64,000 nt of DNA from Eledone cirrhosa (taxonomy: Eukaryota): positions 2,367 to 66,366 of the forward strand of contig CAXHJY010000126.1 in the NCBI GenBank assembly GCA_964016885.1. Direction: 5' to 3'. The notes under the pieces are model-generated. The model saw only the letters and a list, made by a program, of their open reading frames with translations, was not told the origin of the DNA and did no database searches. Shown piece after piece: positions 26,193 through 59,958 of this stretch. Positions within the stretch are counted from its first letter, which is position 1. Each line of letters opens with the position of its first letter. Made by a program: the position numbers and the translations under genes.

Positions 26193-26236
<44 letters not shown>

Positions 26237-26280
26237 AAGTTAAATAAAAGTCAAATGATTAAAATTTAGCTTCGTTTATT

Positions 26281-26335
26281 ACTGCTATATATATTTCGGT
26301 GACAGCCATCTTTGGCTGTGACCTCTTCAGGCAGT
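26281..26335 (-). ncRNA. Type I hammerhead ribozyme (family B)
   Basis: ACTGC-CTGAAGA-GGTCACAGCC aaagat GGCTGTCACC-GAAA-TATATA-TA-GCAGT. Confidence 0.85.
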
Positions 26336-26530
26336 TTGAATTAGTATGGTATAGACAAGTACATATGTTGTTGAGGTGTATAATATTGTCAATACTCTGA
26401 TATGCCCAGTTCCTTGTTGGGTTGTTAATTCACTGAGAAACTGGAGTCATAGGAAATGAGGCATATCAGAGTATTGACAATATTATACACCTAAACAACA
26501 TATGTACTTGTCTATACCATACTAATTCAA

Positions 26531-26585
26531 ACTGCCTGAAGATGTCACAGCCAAAGATGGCTGTCACTGAAATATATATAGCAGT
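26531..26585 (+). ncRNA. Type I hammerhead ribozyme (family B, mirror copy with weakened stem II base)
   Basis: ACTGC-CTGAAGA-TGTCACAGCC aaagat GGCTGTCACT-GAAA-TATATA-TA-GCAGT. Confidence 0.75.
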
Positions 26586-26729
26586 AATAAACGAAGCTAA
26601 ATTTTAATCATTTGACTTTTATTTAACTTTATTTTACACTAATCCGGAGTAACTAAACCAACCTGCGCACTTTGTCGAGTGCTCCAGCCTGCATACTGAG
26701 CTGTTGGTATACAACCAACAAATTCAAAA

Positions 26730-26731
<2 letters not shown>

Positions 26732-29163: not shown

Positions 29164-29166
<3 letters not shown>

Positions 29167-29364
29167 GGAACCAGTAAGACCCCGACAGCTGAGCTCAAGC
29201 CGTTTCGACGGCTAATTCTGGACAGAGTCCAGAATTAGCCGTCGAAACGGCTTGAGCTCAGCTGTCGGGGTCTTACTGGTTCCTATTACCCACTCTACTA
29301 CCTCAAGTATTGAGTACTTTGGTGCGTTATGGTCCACCTGGTTCCTTACCACATTTCCTTCGTT
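29164..29364. mobile_element. Fold-back mini-element (family D)
   Basis: Perfect 60-bp inverted arms 29164-29223/29227-29286, one-sided tail 29287-29364; homolog at 59758-59958. Confidence 0.9.
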
Positions 29365-29551
<187 letters not shown>

Positions 29552-29640: not shown

Positions 29641-32600
29641 TTCCGACTGCGCCAACCTGGACTTGGGCAAATCGTAGCGGATCATCTAGGTCGTACCTAG
29701 ATAGGTTCTTAGTTAGAATTAAGGATAAGGACTTTTTAAGTTGTCCAAAAATGCGCATTGTTGGCTATTCAGACCACAAATTAGTGACCTGCATGGTCAA
29801 CCTTGACAGAACTCATAGACAGGGCCCCGGTTACTGGAAGCTCAACTTGTCCTTGCCGGCAAGTAGAGCCTACAGGAATCGGATTAGTACGTTAGTTAAG
29901 GAACGGTTGACTGGAGCGATCGTCAACAACAGGTGGTGGGTATCTCTAAAGAGAGAGATTAGAGTAGTCTCGATTGAATTTAGTAAGGTTCTAGCTGCGG
30001 ATAGGAATAGGAAGGAAAGGGAGCTAATAGATAGAGTAGAAGAGGCAATTAGAAGCGGCGACGTGGCCAGAGTGCTAGCGTCGAGAACGGCTTTGAGCCA
30101 GTTTTTCGACGCGAAGCACGAAGGCTGCGTTGTCCGAAGTAAAATACGTGCTCTAGGGAACGAGGGGGCCAAAGCTGTTAGCTGGGCCCGCGTGACAGAG
30201 GCCAACAGTGGAACTAAATCCACCATCCGGTCTTTGCGAGACCTGGATGGACGGGCGATTCTTGAGCCTAAGCAGATGTGTGAGGCCTTTCAAAGGCACT
30301 TTGCCCGACTGTTCGGGAGGGGCGGGGAGCCGGTTGGGAACGTGGACTTCGGTCCATACCTCGACGGCCTGCCGCGCCTCTCGGACAGGGAGGCGAAGTC
30401 CTGCGAGGAGCCGATTTCGGCCGCTGAGATAGAGGACGTGCTGAGCCAATGCGGCAAACGCAAATCCCCGGGTCTCGATGGTCTTCCTTACGAATTATAT
30501 CTAGCTATGCCGGACTTGTTCCCCGATCTCCTCGAGGTGGTCTACTGCAACTGGCAACAGAACGGGAGAATTCCCTGTACTGTGACCAAGGGCGTAGTCA
30601 CGCTAGTGAGGAAGGACGAGAACAAGGGGGACGAAATAAGTAACTTCAGGCCCATAACACTGCTAAATACAGAGTTACAGATTTTGGCCAAGGTGCTAGC
30701 AAAGAGGTTGGCGCTTGTCGTGGGCAACCTGGTGGGAGATGCGCAGACATGCGCTATCCCGTCCAGGTCCATCCATGACAACCTCCACCTCATGCGATAC
30801 ATCATAGAGAGGGTTGGGAACGAACCCGGCTTTGGTGGGGCTCTGATCAACTTGGATCAATCTAAGGCGTTCGATAGGGTCGACCATGGTTACCTGGATG
30901 CGGTGCTAGCGGCGGCAGGCTTCGGACCCGTTTTCAGGGGCTGGATCACTGCTATGCACAGCAGCCGCATCTGCTCTAGGGTCAAGGTGAACGGCTACCT
31001 CTCGGAGCCGTTCAAAATCGCGCGGTCCATCCGACAAGGGTGCCCTCTCTCCTCCCTTCTGTATGTGTTGACTCTAGAGCCACTACTGCGGAAGTTGGAG
31101 TTGTTGCAGGGCATCCCTTTGGAACCGGGATTGCGGAAAGCGGTGTCGGCCTACGCCGATGACGTGACAGTAATGGTGTCGACGGCCTCCGAAATCGAGG
31201 CGGTCGGCACCTTACTGGAGGAGTACGAAAAGTTCACAGGGGCTAAGCTGAACCGGGACAAGTCGATCGGTTTGCAACTCGGCACGTGGAGGGGCAGACC
31301 GAAGCCCTCCGATGGCGTCGTCGGACGCTGGACGGAGGGCCCGGTGAAGTTGCTCGGGGTCTGGTTCGGACCGGACCTCCAGGTGGAGAAAAACTGGGCG
31401 GAGGTTACGAACAGGGTGTTTGCACTGACCCAGAAGTGGGCCAGTTGCAAACTATCCCTGAAAGGTCGGGCGGAGGTGGCGAACACCTACATAGCGTCCG
31501 TCATCTACTACCGCCTGACCGTAGTGCCCTGCCCAAGGGAAACCCTCACCAAGATGGAGCGCGCGCTCTTCCAATTCCTTTGGAAGAGGCGGGCTCCTAT
31601 GGTGAGGAGATCCATCTGCTGTCAACACCCTTCGAAAGGAGGGCTGGGGATGCCGTGGCTAATGATGCGTAAACACGCATTAAGGCTACGGCACATCTAC
31701 GTATTCCTCACCGGACAACCGGTGTGGGCCTCGTTTGTAAGACGAACCTTTCCCAGACTCGTCTCACTCACCGAGCTGCAATCCTGGGTCAAGCAAAGAC
31801 CGAGAAAACTGGGCGCCTGGCACACTGAGTGTGCCCAGGCGCTCACCGCCCTCTGGCAGGCGGATCCGGTTATCAGTGGAGACTCCACCGCAACATTCTA
31901 TAGAGGGCTGGTACGCAGCAGGTGCGACGACGCCCTCGGAGAAGCCCTAGACATGGAGGAGGACGAACTGGCCAGCCTGTTCGGTAGGACATTCAGCCCG
32001 GGACCTATGGACAACTTCCAGAAGTCCCTGGCCTGGCAGTGCTACCGAGGGGCTTTACCCGTTCGAGAAAGGCTCTACAGACACGGGCGCCCGGGTAGGG
32101 ACCCCGCCAAAAAGATCTGTCCCAGATGCGTGTGCGACGAGGAAACCGTTGCACACGCATTGGTACACTGCTCGGGCGTAGCCGATCTGTGGGGCTATGT
32201 CGAACAACTGCTGTCAAGGGTGGGACCGATCCGGTTGACCACCGAGTCTATTGTAATGATCAAGCCGCCTCCCCCCTTCAAAGATGAAGCAGAGGCGGTG
32301 TTTCTGTGCGTAATAGCCATGGCGAAAGAGGTTGTATGGTGGACGCGTCTGAAAGGACTGAGGTCAGGCACCTTTCTCTCTGGCCAACAACTGGTCCGTT
32401 TCTTCCGATATCATTTCGGAAGAAGGATCAGGATGGAGAGAGAGGTGCTGCACCCCAGCCGTTTCTATGAAAGATGGGTGAAAGTGGCGAGAATGGCCCG
32501 TGTGAATGGGCCTTCACTCTACATCAGACTATAGGTGAGGAAGATGAAAGACCAAGGGAGCACCCCTTCTCTGTGCTCCTGAGGAGAAGGGTTGCACACT

Positions 32601-34774: not shown

Positions 34775-34815
<41 letters not shown>

Positions 34816-34855
34816 GATATTAAATAAATGGAAACTATATTTATAAAACCATATT

Positions 34856-34921
34856 TATTTCATTATACATATTTCAGGGATATCATATTAACAATATGTT
34901 ATGCCTTCTTCAGACAAAATA
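34856..34921 (-). ncRNA. Type I hammerhead ribozyme (family E)
   Basis: TATTTTGT-CTGAAGA-AGGCATAACATATT gtt AATATGATATCCCT-GAAA-TATGTA-TA-ATGAAATA. Confidence 0.75.
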
Positions 34922-36217: not shown

Positions 36218-36985
36218 CTACATTTTAAATTTAAATTTATATTTAAAAGTTGAGTTCAATCTATGTCTGCAGCACCTGAATAAATTTGTCCGTAGATTAA
36301 GGGAATTTTTAGATTTTAGTATAAAGAATATCTCCTCCGCGCAGAGGTCACATGTCTCAGAGGATGAATTAAAAGGAATCCCTCTTGAGACTATATTCCA
36401 AGCCGTCGAATATCTAACGTTATCATGCCTAAGTTGCCAGAGTACGCCTGATAGTGCTGTTGAAGATTTTTTGCTTGGATCTGTGAAAGAATTCTTGTGG
36501 TTATTATAGCGAAGTTTAAATTCCGTCGATGTGGAACCAACGTAGTTAAAAGAATTAAAGTCCGTTTTAACGTTACAGTTGTATATTATATTTTTAACTA
36601 AGCAGTTGTTATTTAACGGACATTTAGATCTATCTCTACAGTTACATTTGTTAACTTGGATATTATTTATGCTATTATCGCTAGGTTTTAAGTTCCTATT
36701 ATTTATTCTATTAATATTTTGTGCTAAATTTTTGGTGGATGAGTAGGTTAATTTTATAGTATGTCTATTGAAAATTGAGTGATACCTATGTGTTCTAGGG
36801 AAGCGATTATCAAGAGCTTTAAAAAATAGTTTAGCGATGTGGGTTTTAATGTTTAGTGAGAAAGTGGGGGCAAACCATATTATGTTCCTAGTTCTATTTC
36901 TTTTTTGGCTTTTGGAATTATTGCAATGCTTTCTAATATAGTTGTTAAGGTTGTGGCCATAATTAAAATCGTAAATATACTCCAA
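36218..36985 (-). CDS. Penelope-like linker plus GIY-YIG endonuclease fragment
   Basis: NIIWFAPTFS, IFNRHTIKLTYS, CNC.DRSKCPL.NNCL..NIIY.C, YVGSTS.FKLRY.NHK.SF, CDLC.EE, CRH. Confidence 0.85.
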   Translation of the reverse strand: MEYIYDFNYGHNLNNYIRKHCNNSKSQKRNRTRNIIWFAPTFSLNIKTHIAKLFFKALDNRFPRTHRYHSIFNRHTIKLTYSSTKNLAQNINRINNRNLKPSDNSINNIQVNKCNCRDRSKCPLNNNCLVKNIIYNCNVKTDFNSFNYVGSTSTEFKLRYNNHKNSFTDPSKKSSTALSGVLWQLRHDNVRYSTAWNIVSRGIPFNSSSETCDLCAEEIFFILKSKNSLNLRTNLFRCCRHRLNSTFKYKFKFKM

Positions 36986-37069
36986 ATACTTGTTGAGTGC
37001 TTTTATATCAGTTATAAATATTTACTCGTTGTAACCCAACAATTGCTAATACTATCTATCGGTCGCAAC

Positions 37070-38773: not shown

Positions 38774-39459
38774 ATTTATCTGAATTATTGAGCCCTCTGC
38801 CTTCATGTCGGATTTGTTTATCGTAAATTCGTGAGCTGATTTTCCGATACTCGATTATTCTACTATATTTAGCTCTAGACATAGCTATTGACCAGTTAAT
38901 TTTATTGTTCATTTGTTGTCGATTCTATTGAATGATGAATAGCTCCTGTTTATTTTAACATGTCTATCGAGCACTCTTATTCGATATGTGTATTCCACAT
39001 TACCGATTATTTTTCGCGAATATAGAGGTTATCTCCCTTGCTGGACTCCATGTGCGTCTAGCTATAGTTAACTTCCTTATTCGTCGGACATGACACGTTG
39101 ATAAAGCATTCCGGTCCGTCCGCTCCCTAGATGTCTTATATATTTTTATGTGGGCTGATAGGGGGCGGATTAAGGAATTGCAGAAACCCAAGAAGCTAGA
39201 TTTACCACCTTTCTAGTGGGTCCAGGTAAGTTTTTACATTCATATAAATTATTGATTTATTAATATTTTATCTGAGTGACCCGAAACTTCCTGGTCGTTA
39301 TTTTTCGGCTGCAAGGGTGATTTTAGGCATAATCTTTGTGTGTTGGTATTTTAACGATAGTTATAGTTTTGATTTATCTGAATTATTGACCCTCTGCCTT
39401 CATGTCGGATTTGTTTATCGTAAATTCGTGAGCTGATTTTCCGATACTCGATTATTCTA
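38774..39459. mobile_element. Non-coding island with ~88-bp direct terminal repeats in TA satellite
   Basis: 38774-38862 equals 39372-39459 (one indel); period 598 bp. Confidence 0.75.
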
Positions 39460-40423: not shown

Positions 40424-40747
40424 ATATATATATGATATATATATATGATATATATATATATGATATATATATATGATATATATATATATATGATATATAT
40501 ATATATGATATATATATATATATATGATATATATGTGATATATATATGATATATATATATGTGATATATATATGATATATATATATATATGTGATATATA
40601 TATGATATATATATATGATATATATATATATACGTGATATATATATGATATATATATATGATATATATATATATATGTGATATATATATGATATATATAT
40701 ATGTTATATATAATATAAGATCAAAAGATGGTTAAAGGAGTTCCATA

Positions 40748-40818
40748 TATTTTATTATGCGCATTTCAAAAACAAACATCATCAAGCAATAATATTTGTG
40801 TTTTCATCAGATAAAACA
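40748..40818 (-). ncRNA. Type I hammerhead ribozyme (family F) in PLE 3' end
   Basis: TGTTTTAT-CTGATGA-AAACACAAATATTATT gctt GATGATGTTTGTTTTT-GAAA-TGCGCA-TA-ATAAAATA. Confidence 0.8.
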
Positions 40819-41814
40819 GGAGAACATGATATGAAGGCTAAAAAACACTTGTGGATAGTGCAGTTTTAAATCAACATATGAAAAATGGTTTTAGATTGAT
40901 GTGTGATATTGGGAAAAATATTTCATTTAGAGAGGGGGGGAAGGATGAAAGGGGAGGAGATGAGAGGGAGAGATGGGTGATAGAGAGAAAGAGATAGTTT
41001 TTATAACTGAGAGGAGATATATTTTTTACAAAGAGAGGTTGAAATCCGTTGGAAGATACTGTATAAATTAAAGATTTTGAAAATTAACGAAGGGAGGATA
41101 TGTGCGAGGAAAAATATTTTATTTAGGGAGGGGGGGGGTGGAAAGGATGAAAAAAATGGGGGAGGAGATGAGAGTGAAGGTGGAGAGGGAGAGATGGGTG
41201 ATAGAGAGAAATAGATAGTTTTTATAACTGAGAAAAAGATATATTGTTTTAATATAGAGAGGTTGGGAACCGTTGGAAGATAATGTATAAATTAAAGGAA
41301 TTTGAAAATTAACGAAGGGAAATTATGTATGAAGATAGAGAGAAAAAAATAATAATTGTGGGTGAATATTCTAACGTCAAAAGAAGAAATGTATGTATTG
41401 TGGCAATTTCAAAATTAGCGAAGAGAAAAATTGTTAAGGTTTGTGTGTAGAAGGATTTGAGAAAAATAATGTGAAGTTAAAGTTTGTATATGATATGTGG
41501 GAATAAAGAGTTAATATGTATTAATAATGAGTTCGTTGATGGGGAGAAAAAAATAATAATAATAATAAAATAAGGATGAAATTGAGATTAAAAAGATTTA
41601 TGATAGAGAGAAAAAATAATAATGATTGCGGATGAATATTCAAATGACAAAAACAAATGCTATGATTTTACGAGAAGATAGAATGAGGGTAATGAGTAAA
41701 CGAGTATTATAGAGTGTATAATGCCCTTTAAAGTAAGGTAGATGGGTATATTTTAAAGAGGTGTATGTATATGTGCCTTTGAGAAAAGATTCTAAATTGA
41801 TAAAGAATTGAATA

Positions 41815-43398
41815 TTAACTGTATACTTTGTGAAAAGTTCTATGGAATTTATGCAGGCAGATAGAAAACAAATCTGAGCGTCTATTTATTATAGAATCTA
41901 GGTTAGAGATAATGGTAAATTTTTCATTTAGGCAGAGATTACAGATTTTAGATAGAGAGCTGTTCAAGTATGAGGATGCAGAAGAAATCTTCTTCCAAAA
42001 GATGGTATATTTAATGTTTTTGTCTTTTAAGGACCATATGAGTTCTGAGAGAGCAGTGTTAGTTCTTTTAAGTTTGTATTTGAAAGATGAATGATGATTA
42101 TAGAGACGAGCTTTAAAAGAGGTGGAAGTGGAGCCAAAATAGGTGAAGGAATTGGTGCTAGTTATAATTTTACATTCATAAATTAAGTTTTTATCGAGGC
42201 AATGGTTGTTGAGAGGACATTTATTTTTAATGCGGCAGTTGCAATTAGAGAGATTATTAATGAGTGATCTAGTGTTATCTATAGAAGGAATTGGATTGGA
42301 GAAGTTGTTTGCGATAGGAATAATAGGAATAATAGTTTCTTGATTTAGAGTTGCATTATGAACATATAGCGAAGTTGTGTTTGACGTTGTATTTGGGTTT
42401 ACAGAAGTTAGCCTAGGGTTTACAATGACGTCGGGAGTACTATTACTGTTATTATGAAATTCAATATTGGAAGGAAGAGATTTAGTATTTAATATTTTGT
42501 TGTTGTGTTTAGAGATGATGTTGGAAATATTGGAGGATGTAGAATACGAAAATTTGATGGTGTGTTTGTTAAATATTTTACTATAGATATGTGAGGGAGG
42601 GAAGCATTTATTTAAGGCACTAAAAAATAATTTAGGAATATTGTTATTAATAGAGATGGAGAAAGGAGCATTATACCAGATTATGTTTTTGTATCTAGGT
42701 CTTTTATTAAAATTATTGGAATGGTTATGATTAATTATTCTACTGTAAGTTTTTCTAGAATTTGTTTCTTTATTATATTTGATTTTATCTGGATAGCCGG
42801 CTTTAGAAAGTGCGTTATTATAGTAATTAGCGTTAGCATCAAAGATGTTTTTATTAGAAGATATGTTAGATATTCTATTTCCAATATTATTAACTATAGC
42901 ATTCTTGATATTGGTAGGATGGTTAGATTTAAAGTTAACATAATTAAGGTTCTCATTTTTTCTATGGTAAGGGTAATATAGGCCAGTGTCAAGATTAAGA
43001 GATACATCCAAGAAATTAGCTAGTTTGATACTATTATCAAATTCAATTTTTAGGTTATGTTGGTTAAAGAGATTACGTATATTGTTCTTAATAATATTAA
43101 GTTTAACTATATTGCAATTTAGGATAGTAAAGAGTCCATCGTCACGATAAATTCCACCGCGAAGTTGAGGAATTTTCCGACTCAAAGAGTTCAAAATGAA
43201 GATACCAATTAAATCAGTCAATTGGGATGAATCGGATGCTCCCATTGTGATGTCGAAGTTGTTAGAGGTATCGGCTCTGGTCCAATATTCGTTGTTGAAC
43301 TCTAGGATGGTTTTACGTGCGGTGAGGATGATGTGAAGTTCATCTGTGGTGATGTCAGAATATTTAAGTGCGAAAGATAGAGCATTATTTATAAGCCA
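41815..43398 (-). CDS. Penelope-like RT (C-terminal half) plus Zn-linker and GIY-YIG endonuclease, Naiad-like; 5'-truncated
   Basis: FDITMGAS, GIYRDDGL, NFLDVSLNL, YVNFKSNHP, IIWYNAPFS, CNC..KCPL..CL..LIYEC, YFGSTS.FKARL.NH..SF, CNLCLNEK; the ORF-track start (43416) lies in the inverted arm. Confidence 0.92.
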   Translation of the reverse strand, partial: WLINNALSFALKYSDITTDELHIILTARKTILEFNNEYWTRADTSNNFDITMGASDSSQLTDLIGIFILNSLSRKIPQLRGGIYRDDGLFTILNCNIVKLNIIKNNIRNLFNQHNLKIEFDNSIKLANFLDVSLNLDTGLYYPYHRKNENLNYVNFKSNHPTNIKNAIVNNIGNRISNISSNKNIFDANANYYNNALSKAGYPDKIKYNKETNSRKTYSRIINHNHSNNFNKRPRYKNIIWYNAPFSISINNNIPKLFFSALNKCFPPSHIYSKIFNKHTIKFSYSTSSNISNIISKHNNKILNTKSLPSNIEFHNNSNSTPDVIVNPRLTSVNPNTTSNTTSLYVHNATLNQETIIPIIPIANNFSNPIPSIDNTRSLINNLSNCNCRIKNKCPLNNHCLDKNLIYECKIITSTNSFTYFGSTSTSFKARLYNHHSSFKYKLKRTNTALSELIWSLKDKNIKYTIFWKKISSASSYLNSSLSKICNLCLNEKFTIISNLDSIINRRSDLFSICLHKFHRTFHKVYS

Positions 43399-44223
43399 AT
43401 TACTATAATAACGCACTTTCTAAAGCCGGCTATCCAGATAAAATCAAATATAATAAAGAAGACAAATTCTAGAAAAACTTACAGTAGAATAATTAATCAT
43501 AACCATTCCAATAATTTTAATAAAAGACCTAGATACAAAAACATAATCTGGTATAATGCTCCTTTCTCCATCTCTATTAATAACAATATTCCTAAATTAT
43601 TTTTTAGTGCCTTAAATAAATGCTTCCTCCCCTCACATATCTATAGTAAAATATTTAACAAACACACCATCAAATTTTCGTATTCTACATCCTCCAATAT
43701 TTCCAACATCATCTCTAAACACAACAACAAAATATTAAATACTAAATCTCTTCCTTCCAATATTGAATTTCATATAACTGAGAAAAAGATATATTAAAAC
43801 AATATATCTTTTTCTCAGTTATAAAAACTATCTCTTTCTCTCTATCACCCATCTCTCCCTCTCCACCTTCACTCTCATCTCCTCCCCCCTTTTTTTCATC
43901 CTCCCCCCCCCCTCCCTAAATAAAATATTTTTCCTCGTACATATCCTCCCTTCGTTAATTTTCAAAATTTTTAATTTATACAGTATCTTCCAACGGTTTT
44001 CAACCTCTCTTTGTAAAAAATATATCTCCTCTCAGTTATAAAAACTATCTCTTTCTCTCTATCACCCATCTCTCCCTCTCATCTCCTCCCCTTTCATCCT
44101 TCCCCCCCTCTCTAAATAAAATATTTTTCCCAATATCACACATCAATCTAAAACCATTTTTCATATGTTGATTTAAAACTGCACTATCCACAAGTGTTTT
44201 TTAGCCTTCATATCATGTTCTCC

Positions 44224-44294
44224 TGTTTTATCTGATGAAAACACAAATATTATTGCTTGATGATGTTTGTTTTTGAAATGCGCATAATAAAATA
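44224..44294 (+). ncRNA. Type I hammerhead ribozyme (family F, mirror copy)
   Basis: Inverted copy of 40748-40818. Confidence 0.8.
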
Positions 44295-44503
44295 TATGGA
44301 ACTCCTTTAACCATCTTTTGATCTTATATTATGCATACTCCAGTCCCACAAACTGTAGAGTGCTTCTTATCCGATATCTGCATTGCTTTATTGTACTACA
44401 ATAAAACTCACCTCCTACATATGATATATATATATATATATGTGATATATATATGATATATATATGTGATATATATATATATATGATATATATATCTATC
44501 TAT

Positions 44504-45749
44504 CTAGGGCTGGTAAAATTCCCGAGATCCATGGACGAGTTCTCTCCAGCGGTCTCTGTCCCTCATTATCGCTGCCATGTCCTGCGTCTCCAACAGACCA
44601 GTGTTTGACCTTAGGGCATCAACATAGCGTTAACCTTGGTCTTCCTCTTCTAGTGTGTCCATGTAGGGGCTCCCAAATAAGTACTGAGTGCAATGTCAAT
44701 TCTGGATGTCGGGGAGCATGTCCAGCTAACCTCAGTCTCCACTGTGTCACTTTTGAGCTGACTTTTGGGATGCTCCCATACAGCTCTGAGTTTTTCATCC
44801 TCAGTGTATACTGATTAATGTTCAGAGCCATCCTCAGCATTCTCGTGTAGCACCCATCCACCATCTGAGTGAGTTTCTTGGTCAGTGTCCAAGTCTCAGA
44901 CCCATACAGCAGCACAGACTCCACTACAGCAATGAAGAGGCGGATCTTCGGGTCTCTACGAAGGTCCGACTTCCACACCGATCTCAAGCTGTGGCACGCC
45001 GCCCAGGCCTTGCTCTTCCTCTCAACCACCTTCACATCCTGATGCTGAGGATATATGATATATATATATATGATATATATATATATCTTCACTACCTTCA
45101 GAGAGGGTAGATCAACCACCAGTCACGTCCTGATGCTGAGGAGGATATTAGAGGGAGCTAGAGCAAAGTGCCTTCCTGCGGTCATGGTTTTCATTGACTT
45201 TAGGAAGGCCTTTGATTCTGTGGACCGTTACTGCCTGATGAAGATCTTACAGGCTTATGGAATCCCCAAGAAGATAGTGGACCTGATATCACTGCTCTAC
45301 ACCAACACCAAAGCCCAAGTCATTACGCCTGATGGGATGACAGAGTTCTTTGAGATACTGGCTGGAGTGCTCCAGGGAGATACATTGGCTCCCTACCTTT
45401 TTGTCATCGTAGTGGACTATTGTATGCGCTTTGCACTGGAGAAACACCAGGACTCTGGCTTTACTGTAGCACCGGCTCAGAGCAGGAGAGTTAGGGCGAA
45501 AAAGGTATCGGATGCTGAATTTGCCGACGACATAGTTTTGGTGACAAATACAGTGAAGGAGGCAGAGGATTTGATGCGGGAGGTTGAGACTGTGTCGATG
45601 AGTGTGGGGCTGAGAATGAATGAGACTAAAAAAAATATCTGGTAGAGAATGTTGAGAAGCCAGAGGGGATCACTAATGTAGGCGGGAAGCCACTGGAATT
45701 GGTTGAGGACTTCTTGTATTTGGGAGCAAAGATTGGGAATACGGAAGAT
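44504..45749. mobile_element. RTE-group LINE fragment with 5' inversion (3' part minus 44504-45029; RT core plus 45087-45749)
   Basis: FIDFRKAFDSV, GVLQGDTLAPYLF, FADDI, FLYLG on +; KAWAAC, VESVLLYGSETWTL, RRGRP on -; 3' end runs into (TAGA)n. Confidence 0.9.
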
Positions 45750-47056: not shown

Positions 47057-47295
47057 GCATATATATATATATATATATATGATATATATATATGCATTAT
47101 ATATATATATGATATATATATATATATATGTGATATATATATGATATATATATATGATATATATATATGATATATATATATATATATGTGTGTGATATAT
47201 ATATGATATATATATGTGATATATATATATATATGATATATATATGTGATATATATATATATATGATATATATATGTGATATATATATCTATCTA

Positions 47296-48025
47296 TCTAG
47301 GGCTGGTAAAATTCCCGAGATCCATGGACGAGTTCTCTCCAGCGGTCTCTGTCCCTCATTATATATATATATGCATGTAGGGGCTCCCAAAGGAGTACTG
47401 AGTACAATGTCAACTCTGGATGTCGGTGAGCATGTCCAGCTAACCTCAGTCTCCTCTGTGTCTCTTTTGAGCTGAATTTTGGGATGCTCCCATACAGTTC
47501 TGAGTTTTTCATCCTCAGTGTATACTGATTAATGTTCAGATCCATCCTCAGCATTCTCGTGTAGCACCCATCCACCATCTGAGTGAGTTTCTTGGTCAGT
47601 GTCCAAGTCTCAGACCCATACAGCAGCACAGACTCCACTACAGCAATGAAGAGGCGGATTTTCAGGTCTCTACGAAGGTCCGACTTCCACACCGATCTCA
47701 AGCTGTGGCACGCCGCCCAGGCCTTGCTCTTCCTCTCAACCACATCATCTTCCGTATTCCCAATCTTTGCTCCCAAATACAGGAAGTCCTCAACCAGTTC
47801 CAGCGGCCTCCCGCCTACATTAGTGATCCCCTCTGGCTTCTCAACATTCTCTACCAGATATTTTGTTTGGACACACTGGAAGAGGAAGACCAAGGTTAAC
47901 GTATGTTGATGCCCTAAGGACAGACACTGGTCTGTTGGAGATGCAGGATATGGCAGCGATAATGAGGGACAGAGACCGCTGGAGAGAACTCGTCCATGGA
48001 TCTCGGGAATTTTACCCGCCTTAGA
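47296..48025. mobile_element. Second rearranged copy of the same RTE family, with 3' termini at both ends
   Basis: Minus arm 47296-47868 with an internal gap filled by TA; plus arm 47869-48025 is the 3'-terminal ~155 nt. Confidence 0.88.
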
Positions 48026-53278: not shown

Positions 53279-53927
53279 ATATATGATATATATATATATT
53301 TATATGATATATATATATATGTATATGATATATATATTATATATATATATATATATGATATATATATATATATATATGATATATATATATGATATATATA
53401 TATGATATATATATATATATGATATATATATATCATATATATATATCATATATATATATCATATATATATATCATATATATATGATATATATATGATATA
53501 TATAAGATATATATATATGATATATATATATATGATATATATATATATATATATGATATATATATATATATATGATATATATATATATGATATAGATATA
53601 TGATATATATATATGATATATATATATGATATATATATATATGCATATATATATGCATATATATATATATGATATATATATGATATATATATATATGATA
53701 TATATATATGATATATACATATATGATATATATATATGATATATATATATGCATTATATATATATATTCTTGTGTATAATGGTAGCTATGGTGCTTCCAT
53801 AGGCGGTATGCCAAAATTAGCACTCAATATTCGGCGAAACAATTGTAACACGCAATAAATTGAGTCCAGATGCATCACTGATTTTTCGTTTTTTTATACT
53901 ATATATATATATATATATAGATAGATA

Positions 53928-54520
53928 GATAAAAACAAATAACGAAACGAAATTAAATTTCGTTTCGCTTCTAACTCACTTTTGTATGACTGACGCTTAA
54001 ACAATTAAGTCAAAGTGTACATCTACATATGTATACGGAAGTATTAGTATGCATATAAATACACATATGTATACATATGTACATGTACCGAGCTTTTCAC
54101 TAGACACTTTGCAGTGAGTGTCTAGCTAGTCTGTATGTAAACACACAGACGAACCGGGTTTTAAAGTCATACGGGTTTTCAAGGAAACACACTTCCTCTA
54201 TCCTCCAGAGAGCCAGACAGGAATATTGGACTAGTTTCGATGTTATTACATCTCATCAGCAATATATACCTATCTTCTGGCTTCTCCGGAGAATTGTAAA
54301 AGCACATATCGTTATATGCTTTTTCTATGAAAATCAGTAGTGGGCAGACTAATTTGCATAGAACGTGAGTCATTGTACGCGCCGGTTCAGCGGAAACGAT
54401 AAAAACAAATAACGAAACGAAATTAAATTTCGTTTCGCTTCTAACTCACTTTTGTATGACTTACGCTTAAACATACTAATACTTCCGTATACATATGTAG
54501 ATGTACACTTTGACTTAATT
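53928..54520 (-). mobile_element. Retrozyme-like non-coding element (family G): 470-nt unit with terminal redundancy and short inversion
   Basis: Direct repeat 53928-54003/54398-54473; inverted 49-mer 54003-54051/54472-54520; canonical HHR inside; TA-type repeats on both flanks. Confidence 0.8.
54223..54265 (-). ncRNA. Canonical minimal type I hammerhead ribozyme (family G)
   Basis: ATATTG-CTGATGA-GATGT aata ACATC-GAAA-CTAG-TC-CAATAT; all stems perfect, GUC cleavage triplet. Confidence 0.9.
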
Positions 54521-54998
54521 ATATATAGATAGATATGTATGTATTATATATATATATAGATATGTATGTATTATATATATATATATAGATATGTATGTAT
54601 AATATATATATATATAGATAGATATGTATAATATATATATATATATAGATATGTATGTATAATATATATATATATATATATAGATATGTATGTATAATAT
54701 ATATATATATATATATAGATATGTATGTATAATATATATATATATATATATAGATATGTATGTATAATATATATATATATATATATAGATATGTTTGTAT
54801 AATATATATATATATAATATATATATATGTATGGTGTGTGTGTGTCGATGCAATGATAACAATAATTATACTGTTCTTACAAGTTAGGCTCCTGGCTGGG
54901 AATATTGTATTACAATTAATCCTATGCGTGAGCTCCAAATGAATTTATTGAGCAAATTGTAAATAAGGAGACCGAAATCACTGTATATCGATTTAAAC

Positions 54999-56183: not shown

Positions 56184-56908
56184 AGGAGGTGAGTTTTATT
56201 GTAGCACAATAAAGCAATGCAAATATCGGATAAGTAGCACTCTACAGTTTGTAGGACTGGAGTATAAATAATATAAGATCAAAAGATGGTTAAAAGAGTT
56301 CCAAGTATTTTATTATGCGTATTTCAAAAACAAATATCATCATGGGATGATATCTGCGTTCTCATCAGATAAAATAGGGAGACATGATATGAAGCTTAAA
56401 AAACACTTGTGACCAGTGAAGTTTTAAATCAACATATGAAAAATAAACTAAGATGGATATATGAGATTGGGAAAAAGTGAGGGGGGCTGGAAAAGGTAAG
56501 AGTAAAGGATGGTGGAGGAGGAGTATAAGAAGGAAGGATGAGAGAGGAGGAGAGATGGGTGATAGAGAGAGAGAGAGATAGTCTTTACAACTGAGAAAAA
56601 ATATTGTCTCACAGAGAGAAATTTAAAAAGCCGTTGGAAGATAATAGATAATTTAAAAGATTTTGAAATTAAAAGTTAATGAGGTTTATGCATGAAGAAA
56701 AAGGAATTAAGAAAAGTATTAAATTAAGGTTTGTATATTGAAGGGTTTAATAATATGTGCGAAGAAAAGAATTTATTAATATGTAGTCTTTATCATGTCT
56801 CCCTATTTTATCTGATGAGAACGCATATATCATCCCATGATGATATTTGTTTTTGAAATGCGCATAATAAAATACCTGGAACTCTTTTAACCATCTTTTG
56901 ATCTTATA
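56184..56908. mobile_element. Non-coding fold-back derivative of the family F Penelope-like 3' end
   Basis: Homologous to the 3' UTR and tail of 40711-44417; arms 56270-56389/56791-56908; tail on the left only; HHRs at 56306-56376 (-) and 56804-56874 (+). Confidence 0.9.
56804..56874 (+). ncRNA. Type I hammerhead ribozyme (family F)
   Basis: TATTTTAT-CTGATGA-GAACGCATATATCATC ccat GATGATATTTGTTTTT-GAAA-TGCGCA-TA-ATAAAATA; stem II substitutions relative to 44224 keep pairing. Confidence 0.85.
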
Positions 56909-56930
56909 TATATATATATATATATATATA

Positions 56931-57144
56931 GTGGTAGAACACTGGAAGGTAATATCCGTAGTGGTAGAGCACTCAGTCCATGGGACGAGTTAGGTAGAAG
57001 TGGTTACACAACAGTTAGTTCGCCACACCGAGAACAATTGATCAACCTTAGTGGATCCTCACCTCGTGATTACGAACTGAGGATCCGCTAAGGTGAAACA
57101 ATTGTTCTCGGTATGGTGAACTAACTGTTGTGTAACCACTTCTA
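56931..57144. mobile_element. Fold-back mini-element (family H) with HHR-like fold at 57073-57110 (+)
   Basis: Arms 56995-57061/57078-57144, tail 56931-56994; CGAA-CTGAGGA-TCC gctaa GGT-GAAA-CAATTG-TT-CTCG. Confidence 0.75.
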
Positions 57145-59414: not shown

Positions 59415-59416
<2 letters not shown>

Positions 59417-59737
59417 GAATATCTGTTGGTTGTTTACCGACACCTCAGTATGCAGGTAGGAGCATTCAACGAAGTGCGCAGGTTGGTTTGTTCACTCTGG
59501 AGTAATGTAAAATAAAATGCGTAAGTCAAACATATTAAAGTTGGCTTCGTTTATTCCAATTCGCTGCTATATATATTTCAGTGACAGCCATTATTGGCTG
59601 TGACCTCATCAGGCGGTAAGTATTTAGGCAGAAAAAAACAGGAAAACATGATGTTGTAATGGGTTCTACCCTGTTAATTCATCGATATGTCCAGCTCCAG
59701 TGTGCGTTGTTAGTCCTCAAAGGAACTGGAATCATAA
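59415..59737 (-). mobile_element. Family B element, single unit with tail; HHR at 59563-59617
   Basis: Diverged homolog of 26231-26731; ACCGC-CTGATGA-GGTCACAGCC aataat GGCTGTCACT-GAAA-TATATA-TA-GCAGC; (TA)n on both sides. Confidence 0.85.
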
Positions 59738-59757
59738 ATATATATATATATATATAT

Positions 59758-59958
59758 AGAATAAAGAAAGTGTGGTAAGATACCAGGTGGACCATAACGC
59801 ACCAGAGTACTCAATACTTAGAGTAGTAGAGTGGGTAATAGGAAAAGAGTCAGGACCCCGACGGCGGAGCTCCGGCCGTTTCGACAGCTAGATCCGAACT
59901 GTTCGGATCTAGCTGTCGAAACGGCCGGAGCTCAGCCGTCGGGGTCCTGACTCTTTAT
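59758..59958. mobile_element. Fold-back mini-element (family D), opposite orientation to 29164
   Basis: Arms 59844-59899/59901-59956; tail 59758-59843 is the reverse complement of the 29.3-kb tail. Confidence 0.9.

Follow-up and report, generated by a model that had tools for sequence, protein, structure and literature searches.

A non-coding insert of 592 bases carrying a hammerhead ribozyme motif occupies positions 53928-54519 of the window, the 64-kb stretch of Eledone cirrhosa DNA analysed here, in surroundings of AT-rich, microsatellite-rich animal DNA. The insert is bounded by an exact 16-nt target-site duplication on the plus strand, of which the left copy (53912-53927) is the first unit of a host TA/GATA minisatellite, and the right copy (54520-54535) runs into that same minisatellite, extending to about position 54833. 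Removal of the insert makes the minisatellite continuous again. Of the three occurrences of the 16-mer in the 64 kb, two flank the element and the third lies in the minisatellite alongside; because the word is of low complexity, the evidence for a duplication is good but not absolute. The duplication supports insertion by target-primed reverse transcription, and the insertion is real and probably young.

Read on the minus strand, the insert consists of an inverted piece (X), a repeat (R1), a body with a type I hammerhead, a second X and a second repeat (R2), with a period of 470 nt. R1 (54398-54473) and R2 (53928-54003) are identical at 75 of 76 positions, the single mismatch setting 54462 against 53992, and their spacing of 470 nt makes them a terminal direct repeat, or partial tandem. 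X lies at 54004-54051, the hairpin-rich body at 54052-54397, and the inverted X, on the plus strand, at 54472-54519, joining R1 through a 2-nt overlap (54472-54473). The layout and period of the original prediction were thus recovered, with X inverted without a mismatch, and its twin-priming geometry is borne out by two primed strands that abut exactly, as placed by the 16-nt duplication. The predicted length of 49 nt for X needed correction: 54051-54003 and 54472-54520 do match as inverted copies at 49 of 49 positions, but T54520 is part of the target-site duplication, so that X is 48 nt long and the element is 53928-54519. The same boundary means that the long strand, which ends at 54473, stops at the unit position where the inverted strand begins. 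The 3' end of R2 (53928) is the putative start site of the long strand, site A, and the 3' end of X (54004) that of the short second strand, site B, which falls in the loop of a small hairpin predicted by local folding; R2 itself contains a 13-bp hairpin (53941-53969) in the fold analysis. The two outer ends of the insert differ by 76 nt, leaving a tail at one end only. The long strand measures 546 nt, one 470-nt lap plus the tail, in which R is repeated and the ribozyme site is crossed intact. The locus therefore holds 1.16 units and one hammerhead, with no tandem of at least two hammerhead units. Elsewhere in the window neither the unit, nor R, nor the full X recurs, the remaining matches being AT-rich low-complexity sequence.

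The hammerhead with its extended helix I spans 54200-54294 on the minus strand and is supported by the Rfam match, fold scores, a helix map and dimer energies. Its core (54259-54229) comprises CUGAUGA at 54259-54253, GAAA at 54238-54235 and GUC, with C17 at 54229, after which the cut is predicted. Helix I has 6 bp and is continued by a long bulged stem, and helix II has 5 bp. The ribozyme had been described as perfect, which holds for the core; helix III is the palindrome ACUAGU (54235-54230), which amounts to one A-U pair capped by four bases. The Rfam HH9 model matches 54207-54277 (E 1.1e-6) with a score of 34.2 bits, which falls short of the family's gathering threshold of 52. A strict hammerhead descriptor gave one match in the window and none in 200 block shuffles, and none of 200 shuffles folded as well as the hammerhead region (z -4.8). 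The active monomer fold has an energy of -2.3 against -10.4 for the best fold, a cost of 8 kcal/mol, and the double hammerhead (-21.4) is about as stable as two inactive monomers (-20.8). With a minimal, palindromic helix III, the ribozyme is predicted from these energies to cut well only as a dimer, and a solitary copy with one hammerhead could not by itself release a monomer. A weak palindromic helix III with a costly monomer fold also fits the published picture of newt and axolotl repeats, in which single copies cut poorly and dimers cut well (PMC7229834, PMC4209133).

The unit has a GC content of 37% and a longest stop-free frame of 88 aa in the ORF scan. Translation of the unit was rejected on this basis, and the RT plus GIY-YIG ORF of an autonomous PLE was not encountered. 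Folded as a circle, the 470-nt unit reaches -158.7 kcal/mol, against -98.4 +/- 5.3 in shuffles, and none of 60 shuffles was as stable; the z score is -11.3 on the hammerhead strand and -6.3 on the opposite strand, and 65% of bases are paired. All three extra hairpins named in the original prediction are present in this highly structured unit, and the retrozyme-like nature proposed there agrees with a non-coding, self-paired unit bearing a type I hammerhead. Matches to Rfam miRNA families on the island were rejected as far below gathering scores. A scan of the island for bacterial promoters, which is not apt for animal DNA, returned no sites. The insert has no poly(A) or simple-repeat 3' priming tail; on the hammerhead strand it ends 3' in U-rich sequence, which in the other copy of R continues into the body.

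Six other inserts within (TA)n runs of the window show inverted arms and a one-sided extra stretch of 64-95 nt (median 85), with edges uncertain by a few bases because of flanking repeats. Four are palindrome-plus-tail inserts, at 26230-26731 (tail 95 nt), 29164-29365 (79 nt), 56931-57144 (64 nt) and 59759-59956 (85 nt); another has inverted arms and an 85-nt tail (56186-56909), and the sixth is a coding PLE with inverted arms and an 86-nt tail (40710-44418). Since its 76 nt lie inside this range, R is most likely a PLE-type tail, with the outer ends of the insert corresponding to start sites A and B. Two of the neighbouring families are represented by two copies each with the same tail (89% and 95% identical), which indicates that ends are fixed within a family. 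The neighbours' tails fold weakly (z -0.3 to -2.1), and no shared tail structure is claimed. A comparison of the unit and tail with the PLE ends among 11 islands of the window gave no match (best E 0.21). Co-inserted segments in the window differ at 19 of 996 positions, gaps ignored; against this background, the single mismatch between R1 and R2 was rejected as a sign of two templates (Fisher p = 1, X vs R).

The element at 40710-44418 is a 5'-truncated coding PLE with a hammerhead at 40810 and a minus-strand ORF (43419-41818) for a truncated RT and a C-terminal endonuclease region. The ORF gave no Pfam match, and neighbouring PLE ORFs are likewise missed by Pfam; some members of its Atlas neighbours have RVT_1 or GIY-YIG, and the CxCx5C linker described for Hydra PLEs is present. 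The inverted part of this element is built from two separate pieces, 43395-43778 and 44042-44332. It is a candidate for the helper type. The insert at 56186-56909 belongs to the same PLE family, at about 85% identity, and contains 3' ends only, as an inverted pair with two hammerhead cores.

Several further observations concern the mobile elements of this window. The palindromic insert at 26230-26731 and a single copy at 59415-59737 form one family of PLE 3' ends (79% identical), with a long helix II and an (AU)n palindromic helix III. A family of short palindrome-plus-tail inserts comprises 29164-29365 and 59759-59956, the former just upstream of a recent-looking, GC-rich LINE ORF of 951 stop-free aa with RVT_1 and zf-RVT domains (29679-32531, plus strand) that lies inside TA repeats. 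The insert at 56931-57144 has a hammerhead-like core, and its GAAACAATTG motif recurs in a 130-nt island (53768-53899) directly to the left of the 592-base insert. A further PLE endonuclease fragment on the minus strand at 36218-37021 shares 45% identity with the 41.8-kb ORF across 145 aa, and the stretch 34810-34920 includes an additional hammerhead core at 34913. RT-coding fragments with direct and inverted duplicated segments lie between TA runs at 44501-45748 and 47295-48025. One candidate exon, compared in order to place the host, matched other sequences weakly and none that is related, while SINE features suggest an octopus-like host.

A second structured, non-coding insert, unrelated to the first, was found within a TA run at 38774-39459. 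It has a terminal direct repeat of about 88 nt and a period of about 597 nt, and its unit folds with z scores of -5.4 to -6.3 (-6.3 on the plus strand), with no hammerhead and no Rfam family recognised in it. The repeat length lies inside the tail range, a coincidence expected about 5% of the time by chance according to a hand estimate. The insert comes without an inverted piece, so that its site B cannot be fixed independently. It is possibly a second PLE parasite, with an unfamiliar ribozyme or none, and the pair of inserts suggests, without proving, that one lap plus tail is the rule for short PLE parasites in this genome.

Searches for relatives in viral and metagenome contigs found none for the unit, and the strict hammerhead pattern had no match in either collection. 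A looser hammerhead pattern returned 109 stretches; of the 107 loci compared, 2 reached E<1e-3 against the body, and in both the similarity was confined to the ribozyme core. The 107 loci share only the ribozyme core and helix III with the insert; PLE-type RT motifs occur on the ribozyme strand in 14 of them and on the opposite strand in 1, a split that ties the ACUAGU type of helix III to PLEs in other organisms. Six metagenome contigs (L031, L038, L060, L062, L077 and L083) carry two identical-type hammerheads 490-730 nt apart in direct repeats, and look like tandem retrozymes or viroid-like circles. In a search of sequencing runs, 17 of the 21 listed runs hold part of the stretch and none holds half of it; four runs from two studies hold 0.20-0.41 of 54 sampled words, the 13 rows with small shares count as no evidence, and the absence of an RNA run says nothing on expression.

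Published PLE insertions provide the closest parallel to the arrangement of the insert. These combine a partial tandem with a directly adjoining inverted copy that is truncated 5', a one-sided tail and TA targets (PMC8557442, PMC3846280). In the one PLE tested in vitro, two internal RT start sites enclose the tail, and the template is predominantly uncut RNA (PMC11167929). The insert agrees with the elements described by Craig et al. (2021, PMC8557442), Arkhipova et al. (2013, PMC3846280) and Frangieh et al. (2024, PMC11167929) in its layout, microhomology join, TA-rich target, duplication, hammerhead and two fixed outer ends with the tail between them. It differs from them in having no ORF and in an upstream direct repeat made up of nothing but the tail and reaching exactly to the second start site. 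Also comparable are the non-autonomous PLEs of Chlamys, such as MRC1, non-coding PLE parasites with pseudo-LTRs and head-to-tail copies (PMC8557442); unlike the insert, the Chlamys elements are mostly without hammerheads. Those that are non-autonomous have 3' sequence in common with their helper, a match for which the insert has no counterpart within the window.

The metazoan non-LTR retrozymes of Cervera and de la Pena (2020, PMC7229834) and of Li, Clavereau and Pollet (2026, bioRxiv 10.64898/2026.07.22.740005) resemble the insert in being non-coding, self-paired and low in GC (<50%), in having a duplication of >4 bp, and in coexisting with PLEs. The unit of 470 nt is just above the 150-450 bp given in PMC7229834 and inside the 51-972 bp given in bioRxiv 10.64898/2026.07.22.740005. 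With axolotl HHR_Amex1 the insert shares a type I hammerhead, a 6-bp helix I and a weak palindromic helix III (PMC7229834). It departs from the retrozymes in that it holds 1.16 units and one hammerhead instead of a tandem array. Because it has one hammerhead, we class it as a PLE parasite likely to behave like a retrozyme and do not count it as a proven retrozyme. A link between retrozymes and PLEs has been proposed (PMC4209133, PMC7229834) and is supported by co-occurrence and pLTR similarity (bioRxiv 10.64898/2026.07.22.740005). The main texts of PMC7229834 and bioRxiv 10.64898/2026.07.22.740005 describe no retrozyme copies that combine a PLE tail with an inverted 5' piece, although their supplements may show them, and no report of such a copy or of a cephalopod retrozyme was found among titles and abstracts, in a search that mostly excluded subscription journals.

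One question raised by this anatomy is what template the enzyme copied. With R repeated and the cut site intact, the 546-nt strand requires a template that exceeded one unit or was circular, or else a jump by the enzyme. The predicted passage of reverse transcription more than once through the unit is to this extent upheld, as the strand exceeds the unit with the cut site intact, but a circular template is not implied, because the same inverted-arm-plus-tail layout is found in six neighbours, including a coding PLE, and in published PLEs. Fixed ends are of no help here, being expected under circular and linear models alike because PLE start sites are internal and fixed within a family, nor are reads across the GUC site, which are collinear with the genome and so do not separate a circle from a tandem transcript. 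The long strand ends within 2 nt of site B, with a chance of about 1% if ends were uniform over 470 positions, by a post hoc hand estimate.

The reading that we favour, to which we give about half of our belief, is that of a retrozyme-type, non-autonomous PLE for which a borrowed PLE enzyme copied uncut tandem RNA, starting at two internal sites. A source with at least two units would be transcribed, and uncut multimers would persist, as proposed from a weak helix III that would restrict cutting to pairs of copies folded together. The minisatellite would then be nicked on both strands, 16 nt apart, by a PLE endonuclease, for which the Hydra type encoded in the window is plausible. One nick would prime at site A, the end of R, in the downstream unit, and copying would proceed through R, X, the body and R again, while the other would prime at site B, the end of X, in the upstream unit, and 48 nt would be copied. 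The long strand would halt where the second began, and the two would be joined through the 2-nt microhomology. Two enzymes working on a single tandem RNA, in the style of twin priming, best account for the exact stop at B; in a monomer circle there is just one B and one X.

Copying of a tandem RNA by a PLE enzyme is further favoured by the 16-nt duplication, the layout of the six neighbours and of published PLEs, the coding Hydra-type PLE nearby, the monomer and dimer energies of the hammerhead, and the use of uncut RNA as the dominant template in vitro (PMC11167929). Against it stand the single copy on which it is built, a tandem source, RNA and helper of which none was seen, and a unit and tail unlike all neighbouring PLE ends. 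Published full-length PLE copies pass the upstream start site, so that a block at B is not general (PMC3846280), published tails measure 30-40 nt (PMC8557442) against 76 nt here, and the related retrozymes of coral, mussel and axolotl build up largely as circles (PMC7229834).

A possible though doubtful alternative keeps the same element and PLE enzyme but takes as template a ligated circular RNA, a monomer or dimer circle, with the enzyme making one lap and displacing its own product through the tail. It accounts directly for an insert of one lap plus tail with the cut site crossed intact, and the insert at 38.8 kb likewise looks like one lap plus tail, although that unit shows no hammerhead. 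The pairing of 65% of the unit (z -11.3) suits a circle, and the long extension of helix I would be expected to keep the ends of a cut monomer together; the helix layout resembles that of axolotl HHR_Amex1, whose repeats give circles (PMC7229834), and circular PLE templates have been proposed (PMC4209133, PMC7229834). However, a monomer circle's one site B and one X would already be paired with the first strand, and the stop at B on a second pass is left without an explanation. The template in vitro was uncut RNA (PMC11167929), and 8 of 9 predicted Xenopus dimers stayed uncut in vitro (bioRxiv 10.64898/2026.07.22.740005).

Rather improbable, and less so than what follows, is the linear read-out of a parent that already had the form R-body-X-R (546 nt), the long strand extending to the 5' end of the RNA or the edge of the parent and the inverted X coming from a second RNA in a dimeric particle. 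In palindromic neighbours both strands copy the same stretch, so that an inverted copy needs no second X on one RNA, and the PLE protein is predicted to be a dimer; such a read-out would also suit the 38.8-kb insert, which is without an inverted piece. It needs transcription to start, or trimming to occur, exactly at site B, and no promoter of this kind is known in PLEs, whose tail is downstream of the promoter; it also leaves the hammerhead without a partner and without a reason to stay intact.

A template jump between two self-cleaved linear monomers, rebuilding the ribozyme site in cDNA, is very unlikely: the two-piece inverted part of the neighbouring coding PLE is consistent with jumping, but the core and helix I remain perfect across the 54229/54228 junction, where no bases are visibly gained or lost, and the stop at B is again left unexplained.

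In L1 twin priming, an inverted 5' piece has its outer end abutting the start of the forward piece, and the two are joined through microhomology. The insert is alike in its inverted 5' piece abutting the forward piece and in the microhomology, and differs in the lack of poly(A), in internal priming sites and in a PLE-like target and tail. A LINE twin-priming product, or a one-off internal deletion of a coding PLE copy, rather than a mobile non-coding family, is hard to believe given that the unit contains no coding remnant, its longest frame being 88 aa, that there is no poly(A) end, that the whole unit folds as one structure, and that tail length and target match the PLE neighbours, even though the window contains a single copy and LINE-type RT ORFs.

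Taken alone, the locus is one copy of an already known kind of element, and both retrozymes and their PLE link are already in print. PLE mobilisation of animal retrozymes has so far been argued from co-occurrence and pLTR similarity, with the mechanism left open (bioRxiv 10.64898/2026.07.22.740005). The locus puts the footprint of PLE integration, that is a tail, an inverted piece, a duplication and a TA target, on a retrozyme-type unit, and as such is more direct evidence. More tentatively, and with odds that we regard as clearly against it, the insert may be the fossil of a PLE enzyme's single lap of an animal circular RNA, with its start and its stop at two fixed sites. If so, copies of one lap plus tail would be direct genomic proof of PLE retrotransposition of retrozyme circles, and the 597-nt unit at 38.8 kb, which shows no hammerhead, would represent another class of structured RNA parasite taking the same route. 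Because the unit is short, full-lap copies survive, and the genome-wide statistics of this family's ends could separate circular from linear templates and test the role of the hammerhead in PLE biology.
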